From Escherichia phage vB_EcoM_C2-3: DNA of 64,000 bases. Of this stretch, positions 245 through 55,452 are shown piece after piece; positions within the stretch are counted from its first letter, which is position 1, and every line of letters begins with the position of its first letter. The DNA lies in sequence record OK076929.1; one strand, 5' to 3'. The translations under genes were made by a program, and so were the position numbers. Under the pieces are notes generated by a model, which was given only the letters and a program-made list of their open reading frames with translations, was not told where the DNA came from and did not search any database.

Positions 245-317
245 TGGGAATTAGCCAAGTTGGTAAGGCACTGGATTTTGATTCCAGGATGCAAAGGTTC
301 GAGTCCTTTATTCCCAG
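245..317 (+). tRNA. tRNA-Gln (anticodon UUG)
   Basis: Cloverleaf by eye: acceptor tgggaat/attccca, anticodon loop ttTTGat, T-arm ggttcgagtcc. Confidence 0.8.
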
Positions 318-318
318 C

Positions 319-405
319 GCGAGAATGGCCAAATTGGTAAAGGCACAGCACTTAAAATGCTGCGGAATGATTTCCTTGTGGGTTCGAGTCCCACTTCTCG
401 CACCA
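319..405 (+). tRNA. tRNA-Leu (anticodon UAA), type II with long variable arm
   Basis: Acceptor gcgagaa/ttctcgc, anticodon loop ctTAAaa, long variable arm, T-arm ggttcgagtcc, encoded CCA. Confidence 0.8.
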
Positions 406-410
406 AATTT

Positions 411-484
<74 letters not shown>

Positions 485-494
485 ATTTAATTTA

Positions 495-568
495 CTCCGT
501 GTAGCTCAGTTTGGTAGAGCGTCTGCTTTGGGAGCAGAATGTCGTAGGTTCAAATCCTGCCACGGAGA
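495..568 (+). tRNA. tRNA-Pro (anticodon UGG)
   Basis: Acceptor ctccgtg/cacggag, anticodon loop ttTGGga, T-arm ggttcaaatcc. Confidence 0.8.
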
Positions 569-570
569 CT

Positions 571-660
571 GGAGGCGTGGCAGAGTGGTTTAATGCACCG
601 GTCTTGAAAACCGGCAGTCGCTCCGGCGACTCATAGGTTCAAATCCTATCGCCTCCGCCA
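571..660 (+). tRNA. tRNA-Ser (anticodon UGA), type II
   Basis: Acceptor ggaggcg/cgcctcc, anticodon loop ctTGAaa, long variable arm, encoded CCA. Confidence 0.8.
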
Positions 661-665
661 GTTTT

Positions 666-741
666 GCTGATTTAGCTCAGTAGGTAGAGCAACTCACTTG
701 TAATGAGAAGGTCGGCGGTTCGATTCCGTCAATCAGCACCA
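666..741 (+). tRNA. tRNA-Thr (anticodon UGU)
   Basis: Acceptor gctgatt/aatcagc, anticodon loop ctTGTaa, T-arm ggttcgattcc, encoded CCA. Confidence 0.75.
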
Positions 742-742
742 A

Positions 743-817
743 GGCCCTGTAGCTGGAAGGTTCAAGCAAGCGACTCATAATCGCCAGATGGTGGTTCAAT
801 TCCACCCAGGGCCACCA
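743..817 (+). tRNA. tRNA with CAU anticodon (Ile-lysidine type as in T4, or Met)
   Basis: Acceptor ggccctg/cagggcc, anticodon loop ctCATaa, T-arm ggttcaattcc; identity Ile vs Met not decidable by eye. Confidence 0.7.
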
Positions 818-826
818 AATTAATTT

Positions 827-913
827 GGGGAGTTATCCCGTAGAGGTAGCGGTGTGGACTGTAAATTCATTGTCATTGCGACTCGGGTGGTTCGACTCCA
901 CCACTCCCCACCA
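827..913 (+). tRNA. tRNA-Tyr candidate (anticodon GUA), type II
   Basis: Acceptor ggggagt/actcccc, putative anticodon loop ctGTAaa with G-U containing stem, long variable region, T-arm ggttcgactcc. Confidence 0.5.
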
Positions 914-917
914 ATTT

Positions 918-992
918 GGATGTGTAGCTCAATGGCAGAGCGATCGCCTGTTAAGCGATTGGTTATAGGTTCGAATCCTATCACGTCCGCCA
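918..992 (+). tRNA. tRNA-Asn (anticodon GUU)
   Basis: Acceptor ggatgtg/cacgtcc, anticodon stem atcgc/gcgat with loop ctGTTaa, T-arm ggttcgaatcc. Confidence 0.7.
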
Positions 993-1106
993 AATTTGTG
1001 ACAACTGTCACATTAATATCTACTTGACGCGATTATAGGGGTTGAACTGATCACTCTTCTCTTAATTTCGTGTGAAGACATCTTGATTGTTGGAGTAGGT
1101 ATTAAT

Positions 1107-1182
1107 GTGGCCGTAGTTCAGTTGGTAGAACTCGAGATTGTGATTCTCGTAGTCATGGGTTCGACTCCCATCGGTCACCCCA
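1107..1182 (+). tRNA. tRNA-His (anticodon GUG)
   Basis: Acceptor gtggccg/cggtcac, anticodon stem cgaga/tctcg with loop ttGTGat, T-arm ggttcgactcc. Confidence 0.7.
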
Positions 1183-1186
1183 ATTA

Positions 1187-1262
1187 CGGGGCATAGCTCA
1201 GAAGGAAGAGCAAGGACCTTCTAAGTCCTAGGTCGTAGGTTCGATCCCTACTGCCTCGACCA
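1187..1262 (+). tRNA. tRNA-Arg (anticodon UCU)
   Basis: Acceptor cggggca/tgcctcg, anticodon stem aggac/gtcct with loop ctTCTaa, T-arm ggttcgatccc. Confidence 0.75.
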
Positions 1263-15229: not shown

Positions 15230-15751
15230 ATGTTTATTTCAAGTGGAAGTGGTTTAATTCGTGTTGAATTTAAAAATGACATCTTTCTTATTCAAGGAGA
15301 TGATATTATTAAAATGAGTTATGACGAAATCAAGAAAATTTGTCATGCTCTTGAAAGTCATGGAAAAGTGAACGCTGTTATTGATATTGGCGATTTATGG
15401 GTGACACTTTATGAAGTATCCGAAGGATTTAACATTGAAGATGAAAATAACATTTTAGCTATTGATAAAAGAAGTGATTTGTTTGATGTATTAAAAGTTT
15501 ATGAACAGTCAAATGGCGGAAGAAAAGCTGTATTGATTTATCAAAAACCGCATTCATGTGGAACTGCTTCAATCATTTCAAATATTGAAGATGAAACTGA
15601 TACTTATATGTGTGTTTTAAAAGCCGGTGGTGACCGTCATCCGGATTTTATTTCTATTCGTCAAAACAATGAAGAAATTTCATTATCAAAATCAGAAGCT
15701 GAAGCTATGATTAAGTATTTAACAACTGTTACACCTTCAATGAAAGGATAA
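15230..15751 (+). CDS. hypothetical protein (173 aa), paralog of previous ORF
   Basis: C-terminal SEAEAMIKYLTTVTPSM matches upstream ORF motif. Confidence 0.5.
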   Translation: MFISSGSGLIRVEFKNDIFLIQGDDIIKMSYDEIKKICHALESHGKVNAVIDIGDLWVTLYEVSEGFNIEDENNILAIDKRSDLFDVLKVYEQSNGGRKAVLIYQKPHSCGTASIISNIEDETDTYMCVLKAGGDRHPDFISIRQNNEEISLSKSEAEAMIKYLTTVTPSMKG

Positions 15752-15753
15752 TT

Positions 15754-16215
15754 ATGATTATTAATGAAAACTCTTGGCACTATAAATTATTCAAACTGTT
15801 TAACGACGAATGGAAACGACCTAAGACACTGTGTGCATACTTTTGGTCTATTGTTATCCCTACATTTTTCGTTTCTTTTTTCGGATGTACTATACTCGCA
15901 GGTCTAACTATTATCTGTGCAGAAATCATACAGAAATGGCTTATTTTTGGTAGTTTATGGACTCTTATTCCATCAGCATTTATACTTGCCATTTTGCTTA
16001 TTTTACTTATTATTGGTTCATTTGTTATTCCTGCACAACTGCATGAAAAATATAAAGATTATAAATGGAAAAAGGATTATGCTTTACATGTAGAAAATAT
16101 TGATAGGGCGTATAAAGGTTTACCTCCTATTCAACCCAAGAAATCTATTATCGTCGAATTTTTAAAAGCGCGTAAAGCTAAAGTATGTCCTGTTATTGAA
16201 TATAAGGCTGAATGA
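15754..16215 (+). CDS. hypothetical membrane protein (153 aa)
   Basis: Two long hydrophobic segments; ATGA overlap with downstream gene. Confidence 0.5.
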   Translation: MIINENSWHYKLFKLFNDEWKRPKTLCAYFWSIVIPTFFVSFFGCTILAGLTIICAEIIQKWLIFGSLWTLIPSAFILAILLILLIIGSFVIPAQLHEKYKDYKWKKDYALHVENIDRAYKGLPPIQPKKSIIVEFLKARKAKVCPVIEYKAE

Positions 16216-24845: not shown

Positions 24846-25109
24846 ATGTTTAAAGTATATGGTTATGATAGCAACATCCACAAATGCGTGTATTGCGATA
24901 ATGCAAAACGTCTTTTGACCGTGAAGAAACAGCCGTTTGAATTTATCAACATTATGCCGGAAAAAGGTGTTTTTGATGATGAGAAAATCGCTGAGCTTCT
25001 GACTAAACTAGGTCGTGATACTCAAATCGGCTTAACAATGCCTCAGGTATTTGCTCCTGATGGAAGTCATATTGGTGGATTTGACCAACTGCGAGAATAT
25101 TTTAAATGA
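24846..25109 (+). CDS. nrdC: thioredoxin/glutaredoxin NrdC
   Basis: 87 aa, CVYC redox motif, recognised as T4 NrdC. Confidence 0.85.
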   Translation: MFKVYGYDSNIHKCVYCDNAKRLLTVKKQPFEFINIMPEKGVFDDEKIAELLTKLGRDTQIGLTMPQVFAPDGSHIGGFDQLREYFK

Positions 25110-25576: not shown

Positions 25577-25616
25577 GAACCTACAATAAATGACTTAATT
25601 GATATGGAGATGGGAC

Positions 25617-26102
25617 ATGATTACAGTAGATAAGTGGTTTAGAATTAATCGTGTTGATACAGGGCTATGTAATTACTGGCCGGAACTTAGTGCAGGTACT
25701 GTCTTTAAAGTTCGTGAACTTGCAAAAGAATGCGAAGATGATATAGAACCTGATACTGGAATTATTGAAATTGAACTTTCCGACGGAAAGATTATTAACA
25801 TCTATGATAAGCCAATTACATACTGGTGTTTGTGGAATACTGAATCCGTTGAAAATGGCGAAATTGAAGAAGTTGTAGAGCGAACTAATCAAGTTGTTCA
25901 GAAGCCTAAAGCCGATTTTCAAGGTGAACGTATTTCATACGCATTAGCTAAATTAGCTGCACAAGAAAATAACGATGGCTATGAAGGTAACCTGATGCAA
26001 GCTGCCGCAGAGTACATTGAATGGCTTGAAACTCAAATTTCTTTTTCTGACCAAAAGATTCGGCAATATAAGCGATTGCATCAAATGTTTTATAATACTT
26101 GA
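25617..26102 (+). CDS. pin: protease inhibitor Pin-like protein (161 aa)
   Basis: 161 aa and position between nrdC and gene 49 match T4 pin; assignment by position and length only. Confidence 0.45.
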   Translation: MITVDKWFRINRVDTGLCNYWPELSAGTVFKVRELAKECEDDIEPDTGIIEIELSDGKIINIYDKPITYWCLWNTESVENGEIEEVVERTNQVVQKPKADFQGERISYALAKLAAQENNDGYEGNLMQAAAEYIEWLETQISFSDQKIRQYKRLHQMFYNT

Positions 26103-26138
26103 AAAAACTCAAAATTCTTTTTCTGACAGGACATTTTA

Positions 26139-26315
26139 ATGAAAACCGAATTGGTTTATACTGAAAAGTTAAATGGCGGTAAGGTTTGGAAACTTTTTAT
26201 TAAAGGACATTCTACGGACCCTCATATGACCACTTGCGTAGGAACCTATTCTCGTCCTACTAAAAAGATGATTCGACAGTATAAACGATTGCATCGAATG
26301 TTTTACAATACTTAA
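26139..26315 (+). CDS. hypothetical small protein (58 aa) sharing C-terminal 14 aa with upstream ORF
   Basis: C-terminus IRQYKRLHRMFYNT duplicates IRQYKRLHQMFYNT of 25617 ORF; about 44-bp direct repeat. Confidence 0.4.
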   Translation: MKTELVYTEKLNGGKVWKLFIKGHSTDPHMTTCVGTYSRPTKKMIRQYKRLHRMFYNT

Positions 26316-26326
26316 AAATAATAAAT

Positions 26327-26351
26327 ACCCTTATCTATTTAAGGTAAGGGT
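26327..26351 (+). promoter_or_regulatory. RBS-sequestering hairpin upstream of gene 49
   Basis: accctta / taagggt inverted repeat with AAGG SD in loop/arm, 7 nt before ATG 26358. Confidence 0.4.
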
Positions 26352-26357
26352 TTTATT

Positions 26358-26831
26358 ATGTTATTGACTGGCAAATTATACAAAGAAGAAAAACAAAAAT
26401 TTTATAATGCACAAAACGGTAAATGCTTAATTTGCCAACGAGAACTAAATCCTGATGTTCAAGCTAATCACCTCGACCATGACCATGAATTAAATGGACC
26501 AAAAGCAGGAAAGGTACGTGGATTGCTTTGTAATCTATGCAATGCCGCAGAAGGTCAAATGAAGCATAAATTTAATCGTTCTGGCTTAAAGGGACAAGGT
26601 GTTGATTATCTTGAATGGTTAGAAAATTTACTTACTTATTTAAAATCCGATTACACCCAAAATAATATTCACCCTAACTTTGTTGGAGATAAATCAAAGG
26701 AATTTTCTCGTTTAGGAAAAGAGGAAATGATGGCCGAGATGCTTCAAAGAGGATTTGAATATAATGAATCTGACACTAAAACACAATTAATAGCTTCATT
26801 TAAGAAGCAGCTTAGAAAGAGTTTAAAATGA
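26358..26831 (+). CDS. 49: endonuclease VII (Holliday junction resolvase)
   Basis: 157 aa, recognised as T4 gp49; Cys-rich zinc site CLICQ ... HDHE. Confidence 0.9.
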   Translation: MLLTGKLYKEEKQKFYNAQNGKCLICQRELNPDVQANHLDHDHELNGPKAGKVRGLLCNLCNAAEGQMKHKFNRSGLKGQGVDYLEWLENLLTYLKSDYTQNNIHPNFVGDKSKEFSRLGKEEMMAEMLQRGFEYNESDTKTQLIASFKKQLRKSLK

Positions 26832-28645
26832 CAATTGAAAAAGAAATTGAAGGATTGATTCATAAAACTAATAAAGACCTTTTAAACGAGAATGCTAATA
26901 AAGATTCTCGTGTTTTTCCAACTCAACGGGACCTTATGGCTGGTATTGTGTCTAAACACATTGCCAAAAATATGGTCCCGTCTTTTATTATGAAAGCGCA
27001 TGAAAGCGGAATTATTCATTTCCATGATATTGATTATTCCCCTGCTCTTCCATTTACTAATTGTTGTTTAGTAGATTTAAAAGGAATGCTTGAAAACGGA
27101 TTTAAGCTTGGTAATGCGCAGATTGAAACTCCTAAATCAATTGGCGTTGCTACTGCAATTATGGCACAAATTACTGCACAGGTTGCTTCTCACCAATACG
27201 GCGGAACGACTTTTGCTAATGTAGATAAAGTACTTTCTCCTTATGTTAAACGCACCTATGCAAAACATATTGAGGATGCAGAAAAATGGCAAATCGCCGA
27301 TGCACTGAATTATGCCCAATCTAAAACAGAAAAAGACGTATACGATGCATTCCAAGCTTATGAATATGAAGTAAATACTCTCTTTAGTTCAAACGGACAG
27401 ACTCCTTTTGTAACAATTACATTTGGTACAGGAACTGACTGGACTGAACGAATGATTCAGAAAGCAATTTTGAAAAATCGTATTAAAGGTCTTGGTCGTG
27501 ATGGGATAACTCCTATTTTCCCTAAACTTGTTATGTTCGTTGAAGAAGGTGTTAACCTTTATAAAGACGACCCGAACTATGATATTAAGCAGCTTGCTCT
27601 AGAGTGTGCAAGCAAAAGGATGTATCCTGATATTATTTCAGTTAAGAACAATAAAGCTATCACCGGTTCATCTATTCCTGTTTCTCCAATGGGTTGTCGT
27701 AGTTTCTTGAGTGTATGGAAAGATTCGACTGGTAATGAAATTCTTGATGGACGTAATAATCTTGGTGTTGTAACACTGAATCTTCCTCGTATTGCGTTGG
27801 ATTCTTATATTGGAACACAGTTCAATGAACAGAAATTTACTGAATTGTTCAATGAGCGAATGGATTTATGTTTTGAAGCTTTGATGTGTAGAATTAGTTC
27901 CTTAAAAGGAGTTAAAGCGACTGTTGCTCCTATTCTTTACCAAGAAGGTGCATTCGGGGTTCGTCTTAAACCTGATGACGATATAATTGAGTTATTTAAA
28001 AATGGTAGAAGTTCAGTGTCTTTAGGATACATTGGTATTCACGAATTGAATATTCTTGTCGGTCGTGATATTGGACGAGAAATTTTAACTAAAATGAATG
28101 CTCATCTTAAACAGTGGACTGAAAGAACTGGATTTGCTTTTAGTTTATATTCGACTCCTGCTGAAAACCTTTGTTATCGCTTCTGTAAACTTGATACAGA
28201 AAAATATGGAAGTGTAAAGGATGTTACTGATAAAGGCTGGTACACTAATAGTTTCCATGTTTCAGTAGAAGAAAATATTACTCCGTTTGAAAAGATTTCT
28301 CGTGAAGCCCCATATCATTTCATTGCGACAGGTGGTCACATTTCTTATGTTGAACTTCCTGATATGAAAAATAACCTAAAAGGTCTTGAGGCTGTCTGGG
28401 ATTATGCTGCACAACATTTAGATTATTTTGGTGTTAACATGCCAGTAGATAAATGTTTTACGTGTGGAAGTACCCATGAAATGACTCCTACTGAAAACGG
28501 ATTTGTTTGTTCTATTTGTGGAGAAACTGACCCTAAAAAGATGAACACAATAAGAAGAACATGCGGATATCTTGGAACTCCTAGCGCTGTCCCATGGAAT
28601 TTAGGTAAAATGAAAGAAATGGTAAAACGAGTAAAACATGCATAG
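26828..28645 (+). CDS. nrdD: anaerobic ribonucleoside-triphosphate reductase NrdD (uninterrupted)
   Basis: 605 aa continuous ORF; C-terminal zinc ribbon CFTCG...CSICG and glycyl radical motif RTCGYLG. Confidence 0.95.
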   Translation: MTIEKEIEGLIHKTNKDLLNENANKDSRVFPTQRDLMAGIVSKHIAKNMVPSFIMKAHESGIIHFHDIDYSPALPFTNCCLVDLKGMLENGFKLGNAQIETPKSIGVATAIMAQITAQVASHQYGGTTFANVDKVLSPYVKRTYAKHIEDAEKWQIADALNYAQSKTEKDVYDAFQAYEYEVNTLFSSNGQTPFVTITFGTGTDWTERMIQKAILKNRIKGLGRDGITPIFPKLVMFVEEGVNLYKDDPNYDIKQLALECASKRMYPDIISVKNNKAITGSSIPVSPMGCRSFLSVWKDSTGNEILDGRNNLGVVTLNLPRIALDSYIGTQFNEQKFTELFNERMDLCFEALMCRISSLKGVKATVAPILYQEGAFGVRLKPDDDIIELFKNGRSSVSLGYIGIHELNILVGRDIGREILTKMNAHLKQWTERTGFAFSLYSTPAENLCYRFCKLDTEKYGSVKDVTDKGWYTNSFHVSVEENITPFEKISREAPYHFIATGGHISYVELPDMKNNLKGLEAVWDYAAQHLDYFGVNMPVDKCFTCGSTHEMTPTENGFVCSICGETDPKKMNTIRRTCGYLGTPSAVPWNLGKMKEMVKRVKHA

Positions 28646-29468
28646 GTATTATATAATTTATAAAATAACAAATATAATTAATTCAAAGGAATATATCGGT
28701 GCGCATAGCACCGATAACATAAATGACGGTTATATGGGGTCAGGAACATTGATTCGTGCCGCTTTATTAAAATATGGTAGAAAAAATTTTAATAAAGAAA
28801 TTTTACATGTTTTTGATAATGAAAAACAAATGTATGATAAAGAAGCTGAACTCGTAACCGAAGAGTATTGTCTAAAAGAAAATACATATAATATTAAACC
28901 TGGTGGAAAAGGTGGAACTGCCTATGAACAGACACTTGAACATCGCCGCAAAAATAGTTTAGCAAATAAAGGTAAAAAGAGAACAGAAGAAACTAAAATA
29001 GCTATTTCACGTGCTTTAAAGAAATATAAACGTACGCCAGAGCATCAAGCAAATTTAAATAAAGCCGTAAGCATAGCTATGAAGCGAAAAGATGTTAGAA
29101 GTAAATTAGCTGGAGAGCGGTCTGAGAAAGATAAATTATCTATATCAAACGGTGTTAAAAAATATTACAATTCTTTGAGTGAAGAAGAACGCGAACTTCA
29201 TCGCAAGCGAATTATTGAAGGTAAAAAGAATTCTCCCATGTCATTGGAATCTAGACAAAAGCTTTCAAAAGCTTTAAAAGGACTTCAAGTTGGTTCAAAA
29301 AATCCAATGTATGGAAAAATTTCTCCAACTAGCAAAACCGTTTCAGTTGACGGTATTAAATATGATTCAATTAAAAAGTGCTCAAATGCCATAAAAGTTT
29401 CTAGACATCTTATACTAAAACGCTGTAATTCTACTGATGAAGCTTGGAAAAATTGGATATTATTATGA
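28638..29468 (+). CDS. free-standing GIY-YIG homing endonuclease (Seg-like)
   Basis: N-terminal YYIIYKITN...KEYIGAHS GIY-YIG motif, Lys/Arg-rich DNA-binding tail; overlaps nrdD stop and nrdG start. Confidence 0.7.
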   Translation: MHRYYIIYKITNIINSKEYIGAHSTDNINDGYMGSGTLIRAALLKYGRKNFNKEILHVFDNEKQMYDKEAELVTEEYCLKENTYNIKPGGKGGTAYEQTLEHRRKNSLANKGKKRTEETKIAISRALKKYKRTPEHQANLNKAVSIAMKRKDVRSKLAGERSEKDKLSISNGVKKYYNSLSEEERELHRKRIIEGKKNSPMSLESRQKLSKALKGLQVGSKNPMYGKISPTSKTVSVDGIKYDSIKKCSNAIKVSRHLILKRCNSTDEAWKNWILL

Positions 29469-29935
29469 ATTATGATAGATTTTATCCTTGCGATTTTGTG
29501 AATGGCCCTGGTTGCAGGGTCGTTCTTTTCGTTACAGGTTGTTTGCATAAATGTGAAGGGTGTTATAATAAATCAACATGGAATGCTAGAAATGGTATTC
29601 CATTCACTGGTGAAACACTAGAACAATTAATTGAATGTTTGAATAATGATTATATAGAAGGATTAACTATAACTGGAGGAGACCCTCTCTATCCTGATAA
29701 TCGAGATGTTATTCATTGCATTGTTCAAACAGTAAAAAATCTTTATCCAAATAAAAGCATTTGGTTGTGGACAGGATATAAGTTTGAAGATATTAAACAA
29801 CTAGAAATGCTTAAATATGTTGATGTTATTATTGATGGGAAGTATGAGAAAAATCTTCCGACCAAAAAGCTGTGGAGAGGATCAGATAATCAGCGGCTTT
29901 GGTCAAATACCGATGGGGTGTGGAAACATGATTAA
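29465..29935 (+). CDS. nrdG: anaerobic RNR activating enzyme NrdG (radical SAM)
   Basis: 156 aa from MNYDRFYP; CxxxCxxC radical SAM motif CLHKCEGC. Confidence 0.9.
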   Translation: MNYDRFYPCDFVNGPGCRVVLFVTGCLHKCEGCYNKSTWNARNGIPFTGETLEQLIECLNNDYIEGLTITGGDPLYPDNRDVIHCIVQTVKNLYPNKSIWLWTGYKFEDIKQLEMLKYVDVIIDGKYEKNLPTKKLWRGSDNQRLWSNTDGVWKHD

Positions 29936-30050
29936 ATTGAATTACATTATGGATACTATAAATGATATGATTTTTCATTTTGGTCCAGAATTTTATTCGC
30001 AGTATAGTTTAGTGCTTATCAATGCTTGGTTAATCAATTAAGGGTAAAAT

Positions 30051-36936: not shown

Positions 36937-37123
36937 CATTAATGATGAATTCATAGCAAATATTGATTATACCGAAGAAGATTCTAGATATGTTGGAATA
37001 ATTTATATCACATCAAAAGCAGCACAAGGTGTTGTTTGCATGGCTGAATTTGATGAATACTTTTTAGATTATGATGATATGATAGAATGGTCTAAAAGAT
37101 ACATTAAAAGGAATCTTTTGTGA
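36908..37123 (+). CDS. hypothetical protein (about 71 aa) whose N-terminus is duplicated in downstream HNH gene
   Basis: N-terminus FSTFDINDEFI; 19-bp ttgacattaatgatgaatt repeated at 36933 and 37136. Confidence 0.4.
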   Translation: MHTVKFSTFDINDEFIANIDYTEEDSRYVGIIYITSKAAQGVVCMAEFDEYFLDYDDMIEWSKRYIKRNLL

Positions 37124-37974
37124 AGAATTTTAAACTTGACATTAATGATGAATTTTTAATAAAGGAATTAGTTGAAAAATTAGCGTTGAGTGAAGAAGAC
37201 GCCAAGTCTTACATTAATTTTATTTCTATGAATTCAACTGTTAAAACTCCAGGTAAAACGGAAGCACATCACGTGCTTCCTAAATCAATATTTCCTGAAT
37301 ATTTAAAATCTACATGGAATTTAGTTAATTTAAGTCATTTTAATCATTTTAAAGCACATTTCTTATTAGCAAAAGGTAAAAATGGAAAAATGCTAAATGC
37401 TTTAAATAGAATGATGTCAGGAAAAACATATAAAAATTTATCTTTAGCCGAAGTTGATTTAATAGCTGCTGAATATAGTTTTATAAAACAAGATGTAAGT
37501 GACACAATATCAAAAAGGCTTCAACAATATTATTCAAATCCGCAAAATAGAAATGCTGCTAGAGAAAGGGCATTAAAATATTTTTCAGTAGCAAAAAATA
37601 GGAAAGATAACAAAGAAAGATTAAATAGTTTTAAAACAAAACAAAAAATTTCAATGGCTTCAAGGGAATGGTTTAATAACGAAGAAAATAAAATTAAACA
37701 CCAAAAGGCTGTTCGTGCTGCTTTATCAAAACCTGAATATAAAATAGCTATATCAAATTCAGTAGCTGCTAGTTGGAAAAATCCGGAGATTAGAAAAGCT
37801 CATATAGCATCTCGACGAAAAGGCTATCATTGGGATAATAAAGATAAATTGTATGAATTGTGGATATCATATAATCGTCCTAAACATGTGATGTTTAGGA
37901 AAATGTTAGTTAAGAACGGATATCCAATAGAGGCTTCATTACAGGCTTTAGTTAAAGAATTTTCTTCATTGTGA
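37120..37974 (+). CDS. free-standing HNH homing endonuclease
   Basis: HNH-like motif HHVLPKS...NLVNLSHFNHFKAH; GTG start overlapping upstream stop; between 47 and 46. Confidence 0.65.
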   Translation: MKNFKLDINDEFLIKELVEKLALSEEDAKSYINFISMNSTVKTPGKTEAHHVLPKSIFPEYLKSTWNLVNLSHFNHFKAHFLLAKGKNGKMLNALNRMMSGKTYKNLSLAEVDLIAAEYSFIKQDVSDTISKRLQQYYSNPQNRNAARERALKYFSVAKNRKDNKERLNSFKTKQKISMASREWFNNEENKIKHQKAVRAALSKPEYKIAISNSVAASWKNPEIRKAHIASRRKGYHWDNKDKLYELWISYNRPKHVMFRKMLVKNGYPIEASLQALVKEFSSL

Positions 37975-54862: not shown

Positions 54863-54933
54863 ATGTCCTCCTTATTGCTTTATATATTTATTGTATAATT
54901 AATCTACTAACCCATGAATTGAAAGGAAAAATA

Positions 54934-55452
54934 ATGGCATACTTTAATGAATGTTCACAACTGATTGAAGGCGCTGATAAAGCTCAAAATGAATACTGGG
55001 ATATTCTCGGTGATGAAAAAGACCCGCTGCAAGTTATGCTTGATATGCAGAAATCTCTTCAGGTTCGTTTAGCTAAAGATAAACCTGAATATAACCGTCA
55101 TCCTGATGATTTGGCTACCGCAGGCGAAGTTGTTGATTGGTTGCGTAATCAGAAAGATTATATTGATGATGAATTCCGCGAACTATTGACTTCTCTTGGT
55201 GGTATGAGCAATGGTGAAAAAGATGCATCTGCTGTATGGAAGCCTTGGAAAGCTCAACATGGTGAACGACGTGAAACTCTGATTACTGATTTGTCTCCAC
55301 AAGACCAGTTGGAAATTAAATTCGAAATGATTGATATTCTTCATTTCGTTCTGAACATGTTCCAAGGTCTCGGTCTTACGGCTGAAGAAATCTTTAAACT
55401 TTATTATTTGAAAAATGCTGAAAACTTCGCTCGTCAAGACCGAGGTTATTAA
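54934..55452 (+). CDS. 56: dCTPase/dUTPase gp56
   Basis: Start moved to MAYFNE; recognised as T4 gp56. Confidence 0.9.
   Translation: MAYFNECSQLIEGADKAQNEYWDILGDEKDPLQVMLDMQKSLQVRLAKDKPEYNRHPDDLATAGEVVDWLRNQKDYIDDEFRELLTSLGGMSNGEKDASAVWKPWKAQHGERRETLITDLSPQDQLEIKFEMIDILHFVLNMFQGLGLTAEEIFKLYYLKNAENFARQDRGY

Follow-up and report, generated by a model that had tools for sequence, protein, structure and literature searches.

Gene content of the nrdD-nrdG locus

The analyzed DNA, a stretch of 64,000 nt referred to below as the window, is that of a T-even phage (Tequatrovirus). No exact database match over 24 kb was found, the best matches having 96–98% identity and 93–97% coverage. The locus contains nrdD, segH, and nrdG in this order, with gene 49 as a neighbor (Table 1). 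The NrdD protein matches the PF13597 profile in one stretch over its entire length (profile positions 1–562 of 562) and, in addition, the Gly_radical profile. The 8-nt overlap between nrdD and segH (28638–28645) runs across the nrdD stop, and the 4-nt overlap between segH and nrdG is formed by ATGA. Mechanical ORF listing placed the nrdG start at TTG 29444; we adopted the in-frame ATG at 29465 (MNYDR...), which is the annotated nrdG start in T6, RB3, LZ2, T2, and T4. These coordinates agree with the sequence-only reading, which had described an uninterrupted nrdD of 605 aa, present here as a single ORF, and a 276-aa ORF sharing 8 nt with the end of nrdD and 4 nt with the beginning of nrdG.

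Table 1. Genes and sequence features at the nrdD-nrdG locus (positions in the window).
Feature	Position	Strand	Basis or remark
Gene 49, endonuclease VII	26358-26831		Pfam match; neighbor gene
nrdD, anaerobic ribonucleotide reductase large subunit, 605 aa, ATG start, intron-less	26828..28645	+	Single ORF
Empty nrdD intron insertion site	27345..27390	+	T4 1033-nt intron would fall between 27365 and 27366
segH-linked variant nrdD 3' tail, codons 584-605	28577..28645	+	TPSAVPWNLGKMKEMVKRVKHA in place of NPNERGFNLGKNKEIMHRVKHQ
884-nt tract without difference from RB3	28592..29475	+	Mismatch list against AY262138.2
segH, free-standing GIY-YIG endonuclease gene (very probably homing), 276 aa, ATG start	28638..29468	+	Identity to RB3 SegH
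Predicted GIY-YIG catalytic domain of SegH, aa 1-95	28638..28922	+	PF19835, SegB identity, structure model
Predicted SegH DNA-binding region: NUMOD3 (aa 200-228) and I-TevI-like C-terminal helix-turn-helix (aa 226-273)	29235..29456	+	
nrdG, activase of the anaerobic reductase	29465..29935	+	Pfam Fer4_12 and Radical_SAM matches

The protein encoded by the middle ORF is identical to SegH of phage RB3 (ABI48949.1); compared with SegH of T6, 5 of its 276 residues are different. At the nucleotide level, positions 28646–29464 are 100% identical to RB3, 99.9% identical to LZ2, and 98.8–98.9% identical to the T6 segH records; the protein also matches PHROG 314, "homing endonuclease" (2.4e-60). GenBank carries segH annotations for T6 (AY262137), RB3 (AY262138), and LZ2 (AY262139). 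The three-gene layout of these phages equals that of the window in lengths and overlaps, with segH at the same site, of the same length (831 nt), and with the same 8- and 4-nt overlaps, so that the difference lies in the flanks only. Since the nrdD-segH-nrdG arrangement is annotated alike in T6, RB3, and LZ2, it does not reflect a chance ORF.

The gene is said to have been named segH, from T6, RB3, and LZ2, by Sandegren, Nord and Sjöberg in Nucleic Acids Res in 2005 (33:6203). SegH reportedly cleaves in a site-specific manner close to its own locus and is also reported to cut segH-containing DNA. Papers after 2005 present segH as the GIY-YIG gene found between nrdD and nrdG in the place of mobC; this replacement is already published, and the copy in the window is a known and ordinary one. 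Taken together with the evidence given below, the 276-aa ORF is very probably segH, a free-standing homing endonuclease gene that spreads by intronless homing.

Intron insertion site and 3' tail of nrdD

NrdD of the window is colinear with spliced T4 NrdD, 591 of the 606 aligned positions being identical (stop counted). The two proteins differ by 15 amino acids, 11 of which are located within the final 22 residues. Alignment with the T4 nrdD exons, which had been proposed as a check, mapped the insertion site and found it empty: the best exon split against the window has its junction after nrdD nt 538 (position 27365). The flanks of this site show no difference from T2, T6, and RB3, whose nrdD alleles lack the intron, and clustered silent differences from the T4 exons are found just 3' of it. 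No group I intron was detected by Rfam, either at the gathering score or at E<=1. The possibility of a cryptic intron inside nrdD, raised as a counter-case to the original proposal, is ruled out by the colinear ORF and the negative Rfam scan. The nrdD gene of the window is the common intron-less allele, and its intron site matches that of other intron-less phages.

The 3' end of the gene carries the segH-linked variant tail. Over the final ~118 nt of nrdD, 36 mismatches to T2 were counted, vs. 0–7 to segH-containing phages. An 80-nt tail query is present in 80 records, 72 of which also match the interior of segH. The variant tail is likewise present together with segH in the Moonvirus KM16.

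Domain architecture of SegH

The N-terminal 101 aa of SegH, scanned alone, match PF19835 (SegE_GIY-YIG) above its cutoff (30.9 bits, cutoff 25). In scans of the full-length protein, the generic GIY-YIG profile PF01541 (16.5, cutoff 22.6) and TIGR01453 (50.2, cutoff 56.05; E 3e-13) remained below their cutoffs. Further downstream, the NUMOD3 profile PF07460 scored above its cutoff (33.8 bits, cutoff 20.4) and PF20987 (I-TevI_DNA-bd) below it (21.1 bits, cutoff 27). The N-terminal domain (~90 aa) is 54% identical to T4 SegB (E 7e-32), which is listed among the active endonucleases. No HNH-family match was found in the ORF of the window; T4 MobC matches PF01844 in the same scan.

The GIY and YIG motifs are located at the N-terminus, ~10 residues apart, as YIIY (ending at residue 8) and EYIG (YIG at residues 19–21). 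In an alignment of 40 homologous sequences, Y8, Y19, G21, E69, and N85 are invariant. Compared by eye with the I-TevI sequence, E69 and N85 occupy the positions expected for I-TevI E75 and N90, and the same 40-sequence alignment has no invariant Arg where the catalytic R27 of I-TevI would be expected.

The structure model of SegH has a mean pLDDT of 82, with values of 93–98 for residues 1–90, which are modeled in the order beta-beta-alpha-beta-alpha. In a Foldseek search with this model, the I-TevI catalytic domain structures 1mk0 and 1ln0 were the top matches (probability 1.00), and 1i3j, the I-TevI DNA-binding domain, was matched with a probability of 0.94; I-TevI accounts for each of the four best PDB matches, which cover both domains. 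The structure model was needed to establish this link, because a single-sequence phmmer search of PDB sequences with SegH returned noise only. In the model, SegH has a two-part, I-TevI-like organization, with a long helical linker between the N-terminal GIY-YIG nuclease domain and the DNA-binding modules, NUMOD3 and the helix-turn-helix. The profiles, the identity to SegB, and the structure model support an intact GIY-YIG enzyme. The initial assignment of the 276-aa ORF to the free-standing GIY-YIG endonucleases, and of a GIY-YIG domain recognizable by profile, was thus upheld by the PF19835 match above the cutoff and by the fold match to I-TevI.

Among known enzymes, I-TevI, the endonuclease of the td intron, resembles SegH in the GIY-YIG domain, the linker, the C-terminal helix-turn-helix, and the shared fold. 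[quoted passage not shown] I-TevI cuts within ~25 bp of its insertion site. T4 SegB and the other T4 Seg proteins share the SegE-type GIY-YIG domain, PF19835 being common to SegB and SegH. The C-terminal DNA-binding parts of SegB and SegH, in contrast, are unrelated, their insertion sites and targets differ, and segB, unlike segH, is located in a tRNA cluster.

Expression of segH

The T4 late-promoter consensus TATAAATA was not found within several kb of segH, and no sigma-70-like site was found at the 5' end of the gene; sigma-70-like sites are rarer than in shuffled sequence. A promoter of its own was rejected for segH, given that neither the late consensus nor a sigma-70-like site occurs at its 5' end. 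The gene probably shares a transcript with nrdD and nrdG, and its translation is probably weak and achieved at the nrdD stop by coupling or by re-initiation. A terminator-like hairpin at 29500–29525 was considered as a part of the element and rejected, since it falls within the coding sequence of nrdG and is conserved in T2, which lacks segH.

Occupants of the nrdD-nrdG slot

In the majority of the ~840 nrdD-nrdG records the slot is empty. In the same collection of phages, segH was found in 72 records, T4-type mobC in 32, and another mob-like gene in 32. An internally deleted segH remnant is present in PD112. Several database phages seem to hold both the intron and segH, their record spans being ~1047 nt longer.

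In T4, the two exons of nrdD are separated by a 1033-nt intron that contains I-TevII, and the slot before nrdG is occupied by mobC (HNH, 210 aa), in agreement with the arrangement given in the sequence-only reading. Its further claim, that the same slot is held in the window by a different endonuclease family, also stands (GIY-YIG segH vs. HNH mobC of T4). MobC resembles SegH in being encoded by a free-standing endonuclease gene that occupies this slot and overlaps both neighbors, and differs as an HNH protein of 210 aa (PF01844) with a sequence unrelated to SegH. The two genes also meet their neighbors differently: the T4 mobC ORF opens with a copy of the first nrdG codons (MNYDRIY...), whereas segH is associated instead with a replaced nrdD tail. 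The T4 group I intron with I-TevII is likewise a mobile element targeting nrdD, but is absent from the window.

Footprints of mobility and the proposed homing cycle

The comparison with RB3 (AY262138.2) revealed 57 mismatches in 1451 nt upstream, none in the 884-nt tract, and 15 in 384 nt downstream. The flanks of the tract are thus 3.9% different from RB3, and at this rate a mismatch-free stretch of 884 nt would arise with a probability of ~4e-16. Between the window and the Moonvirus KM16, segH is 91.8% identical, nrdD 76%, and nrdG 73%, with the identity climbing to 86–89% in the final 300 nt of nrdD. The segH dN/dS ratio is 0.17, which indicates that the SegH protein is under purifying selection. 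The identical RB3 tract in diverged flanks, the cross-genus contrast in identity, and the patchy presence of the gene may be read, at the sequence level, as signs of homing.

The beginning of nrdG has a different affinity. Its first 50 nt in the window have 0 mismatches to T2, vs. 10–11 to RB3 and T6, and the first ~35 nt are of the type found in T2 (empty-site) and LZ2, not of the RB3/T6 type. A T2-type nrdG start downstream of segH was considered as a peculiarity of the window and rejected, being common to LZ2. On the nrdG side of the segH cassette, a short conversion tract is seen.

Under the homing interpretation, co-infection with a segH-less relative would allow SegH to cut the DNA of the relative close to the nrdD-nrdG junction, and the break would be mended by recombination with the segH-carrying genome as the donor. 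Along with segH, the recipient would acquire the variant nrdD tail (the last 22 codons) and a flank of variable length ("intronless homing"). For the enzyme of the window, the cleavage and homing step is suggested by its protein identity with RB3 SegH together with published work.

Alternatively, segH might be a stranded, immobile endonuclease gene, kept since it is interlocked with essential signals in such a way that a clean deletion would be harmful. The overlaps of its start with the nrdD stop and of its stop with the nrdG start fit this scenario, as does the arrival of the last nrdD codons along with segH; furthermore, according to a review, embedded host signals favor the retention of such genes, and the PD112 remnant demonstrates that decay occurs at this site. 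We nevertheless consider it very improbable, since the dN/dS of 0.17 applies to the whole of SegH, nuclease domain included, both the 884-nt RB3-identical tract in diverged flanks and the cross-genus contrast (92% vs. 73–76%) indicate recent transfer, and nrdD and nrdG are functional in the empty-site phages, which lack segH. Still less credible is the retention of SegH mainly for a benefit to the phage (marker exclusion directed at the nrdD-nrdG region of competing phages, local recombination or amplification), with the spread of the gene being secondary: localized marker exclusion is a known effect of free-standing endonucleases, and a 2026 paper (PMC13096335) reports SegB-driven amplification of anti-defense loci in T6, but the window bears no sign of amplification or of defense-related cargo beside segH, the neighbors of segH are housekeeping nucleotide-metabolism genes, and homing explains the data fully.

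Possible endonuclease turnover at the nrdD-nrdG junction

Beyond the homing of segH itself, the junction sequences could conceivably preserve traces of successive replacements among the endonuclease genes of this slot, a reading that we offer tentatively and regard as rather doubtful. The first nucleotides of segH, ATGCATAGG (28638–28646), are the 9-mer of codons 599–601 (Met-His-Arg) in segH-less nrdD, so that, judged from this match, the codon at which SegH starts may have been left behind by the former nrdD tail. If the start codon is such a leftover, the present NrdD tail (codons 584–605) may have arrived with the segH cassette. In BCPShso_001, SHFML-11, and ELT1, the segH-type tail is joined at exactly ATGCATAGG to the remainder of the old tail and a T4-type mobC; this junction looks like a direct swap of one endonuclease gene for another. 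More distant SegH relatives are always found directly after nrdD, a placement that would point to the nrdD end coding for the glycyl radical as the anchor of the family.

The presence of segH in the window raises no new question: the window is one more natural isolate with this gene, with a bearing mainly on correct annotation. The turnover at the junction, if described neither in the 2005 paper nor later, would add a minor new point to the picture of this homing hot spot, and the chimeric alleles, the decayed remnant, and the cross-genus transfer could serve as a teaching or benchmark set for the detection of endonuclease turnover. With its RB3-identical cassette in diverged flanks, the window illustrates intronless homing in a clean form, at a slot between nrdD and nrdG for which unrelated selfish nucleases, namely the GIY-YIG enzyme SegH, the HNH enzyme MobC, and the product of a second mob-like gene, compete.

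Gene order and the uninterrupted nrdD gene

Many Tequatrovirus genomes, including PP01, T6, SHFML-26, and CM8, are 96-98% identical to the window over 24 kb, with no exact match among those compared over this length, and the window therefore comes from a T-even phage, in the orientation opposite to the T4 map. Within the nrdD-nrdG region, segH overlaps the nrdD stop by 8 nt and the nrdG start by 4 nt (ATGA), as described in the sequence-only reading. The start of nrdG was taken as the ATG at 29465, which is used in all annotated relatives; the mechanical ORF list runs to the TTG at 29444.

Features of the window considered in this analysis
Feature	Coordinates	Strand	Remarks
tRNA cluster	245-1259	+	ten tRNA genes
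mobD slot	15249-16210		y05I-like ORF and membrane-like ORF
nrdC thioredoxin	24846-25109	+	ORF list and Pfam
pin	25599-26102	+	
Insert between pin and gene 49	26106-26267		162 nt; not in T4 or T6
DUF7279 protein ORF	26139-26315	+	58 aa
gene 49, endonuclease VII	26358-26831	+	Pfam
nrdD	26828-28645	+	605 aa
segH	28638-29468	+	276 aa
nrdG	29465-29935	+	
Second endonuclease-like ORF	37120-37974	+	284 aa, GTG start
gene 56	54894-55415		

The T4 annotation (NC_000866) agrees with the layout given in that reading: nrdD has two exons, the intron that separates them carries I-TevII, and the nrdD-nrdG gap contains mobC, which is of the HNH type and encodes 210 aa. The nrdD gene of the window is, as proposed, a single ORF, the product of which is colinear with spliced T4 NrdD and differs from it at 15 residues, 11 of them within the last 22. 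When T4 nrdD was split against the window, the 1033-nt intron mapped after nt 538 of nrdD, between 27365 and 27366, a site that is empty in the window. The surroundings of this site are exactly those of the intron-less T2, T6, and RB3 alleles, from which T4 departs at clustered silent positions just downstream. The search for a cryptic intron, by the exon split and against Rfam, found none in nrdD: no Rfam match was obtained for 26300-30000 even at E<=1, and at the gathering score the whole window yields the ten tRNAs and nothing else.

Other differences from T4

No counterparts were found in the window for segB, mobD, I-TevII, mobC, mobB, segA, and segF, which constitute all endonuclease genes of the compared T4 region (5000-76000), and the ipII/ipIII and dam segments of this region are also lacking. 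The mobD slot is occupied by two other ORFs instead, and the tRNA cluster has no segB counterpart, the T4 cluster comprising eight tRNAs and segB. Most aligned segments are 92-98% identical to T4, with lower values for gene 56 (76.6%) and for nrdG, downstream of segH (85.6%). Compared with T4, a second free-standing endonuclease-like ORF is inserted (861 nt) between gene 46 and a 46.2-like ORF. Its HNH-like motif (GKTEAHHVLPKS...NLVNLSHFNHFKAH) resembles the ZJUN4 mob-like gene. No Pfam family matches this ORF, which is present in 71 of the 518 phage records matched and is annotated in several of them as a homing endonuclease. The insert between pin and gene 49 is bordered by a duplicated stretch of ~51 nt from the 3' end of pin, and the C-terminus of the DUF7279 protein (IRQYKRLHRMFYNT) copies that of Pin.

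Identity and domain architecture of SegH

The ORF proposed to be a GIY-YIG endonuclease gene in the slot of T4 mobC is, by sequence identity, segH, a previously known and annotated gene. Over 28646-29464, nucleotide identity is 100% with RB3, 99.9% with LZ2, and 98.8-98.9% with T6; the corresponding short GenBank records (AY262138, AY262139, and AY262137, respectively) contain "segH: SegH, homing endonuclease" flanked by partial nrdD and nrdG. The translated ORF is identical to RB3 SegH (ABI48949.1) and differs by five residues from SegH of T6, where gene lengths and overlaps are the same as in the window.

The predicted GIY-YIG domain was recovered by profile analysis. In a scan of the whole protein, NUMOD3 alone passes its cutoff, and TIGR01453 ("group I intron endonuclease") scores 50.2 bits (cutoff 56.05, E 3e-13). 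The N-terminal 101 residues scanned alone match PF19835 (SegE_GIY-YIG) with 30.9 bits (cutoff 25), and SegH matches PHROG 314 ("homing endonuclease") at 2.4e-60. The catalytic domain of T4 SegB, a protein tabulated in a review as an active GIY-YIG endonuclease, shares 54% identity with residues 4-93 of SegH, and Y8, Y19, G21, E69, and N85 show no variation in a 40-homologue alignment. The AlphaFold model built from this alignment has a mean pLDDT of 82 (93-98 over residues 1-90), and its four top PDB matches are the catalytic domain (1mk0 and two 1ln0 chains) and the DNA-binding domain (1i3j) of I-TevI. In a comparison by eye, Arg27 of I-TevI has no clear counterpart in the Seg-type domain of SegH.

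Neither a T4 late-promoter consensus near segH nor a sigma-70-like site at its 5' end was detected. According to the review, free-standing endonuclease genes of T4 have no nearby late promoter or sigma-70 site and overlap their neighbors, which is thought to hold translation low.

Footprints of mobility

Because the ORF is identical to RB3 SegH, we propose that SegH would cleave, close to the junction of nrdD and nrdG, the genome of a co-infecting phage without segH, and that recombinational repair would then use the segH-carrying genome to copy in segH together with adjoining sequence. The 2005 SegH study reportedly found segH in three of 18 phages screened, cleavage by SegH near its own gene, of both segH-containing and segH-less DNA, and homing in mixed infections. 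The co-conversion tracts from that study are compatible with double-strand-break repair, according to the review.

The sequence bears the footprints expected under homing. The window shows 0 differences from RB3 over 884 nt (28592-29475), versus 57/1451 upstream and 15/384 downstream; the chance of zero differences at the flank rate is ~4e-16, and the tract indicates recent transfer. The last 22 nrdD codons (584-605) of segH-carrying phages are TPSAVPWNLGKMKEMVKRVKHA, replacing NPNERGFNLGKNKEIMHRVKHQ, and silent substitutions are also spread across the glycyl-radical codons. On the other side, the first ~35 nt of the window nrdG are T2-type, shared with LZ2, and not RB3/T6-type, and the conversion tract is short here. 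The segH gene of Salmonella phage KM16 (Moonvirus; comparison locus L017, 2193-3023) is 91.8% identical to that of the window, versus 76% for nrdD, 73% for nrdG, and 75% for gene 49, a contrast that indicates cross-genus transfer; the final 300 nt of nrdD are more similar, at 86-89%. The dN/dS ratio of segH (0.17) indicates purifying selection.

Occupants and possible turnover of the nrdD-nrdG slot

Matches to the nrdD/nrdG flanks were obtained in about 840 phage records. The slot contains segH in 72 records, T4-type mobC in 32, and a 279-aa mob-like gene (e.g., in ZJUN4) in another 32, and most records are empty and T2-like, with the stop of nrdD overlapping the start of nrdG as ATGA, all counts containing duplicate GenBank/RefSeq entries. 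For FL23, FL44, EC128, SYGD1, and SP21535, the gene 49-nrdG query aligned as two segments, the record span being ~1047 nt longer, and the annotation lists two fragments of the reductase along with two homing endonucleases; these phages apparently carry the nrdD intron and segH together.

The third occupant, the ZJUN4 gene (L005, 1941-2780), belongs with MobC to PHROG 655, and both genes start with a duplicate of the first nrdG codons. In ZJUN4, the first 13 codons duplicate the T2-type nrdG start, and the genuine nrdG downstream is RB3/T6-type. Records with the segH-type nrdD tail number 80, exceeding the 72 with segH. In BCPShso_001 (L013, 1795-1935), SHFML-11 (L014), and ELT1 (L015), this tail is followed by T4-type mobC, the join lying exactly at the 9-mer ATGCATAGG, which forms the start of segH (Met-His-Arg) and also makes up codons 599-601 in segH-less nrdD. 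From there the sequence leads into what is left of the old nrdD tail and into mobC, with 208-209 of 211 aligned positions (stop counted) identical to T4 MobC; these chimeric alleles suggest that one endonuclease gene replaced another. The PD112 locus (L006, 1946-2256), which keeps the segH-type nrdD tail and both ends of segH with ~590 nt of the interior deleted, is, as judged from this structure, a decayed segH copy in the same slot.

In distant T4-like metagenomic contigs (L007, 4001-4828; L008; L009; L010, 417-1268), SegH relatives with 47-48% identity are located directly downstream of nrdD. Here nrdD encodes a 705-aa form with an ATP-cone, a ~52-nt spacer with a GC-rich inverted repeat (by eye) precedes the SegH relative, and nrdG lies ~2 kb farther on. 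Taken together, the PD112 remnant, the chimeras, the duplicated nrdG starts, and the distant relatives suggest that the 3' end of nrdD may be the anchor point of the SegH family and that endonuclease genes would displace one another at this slot.
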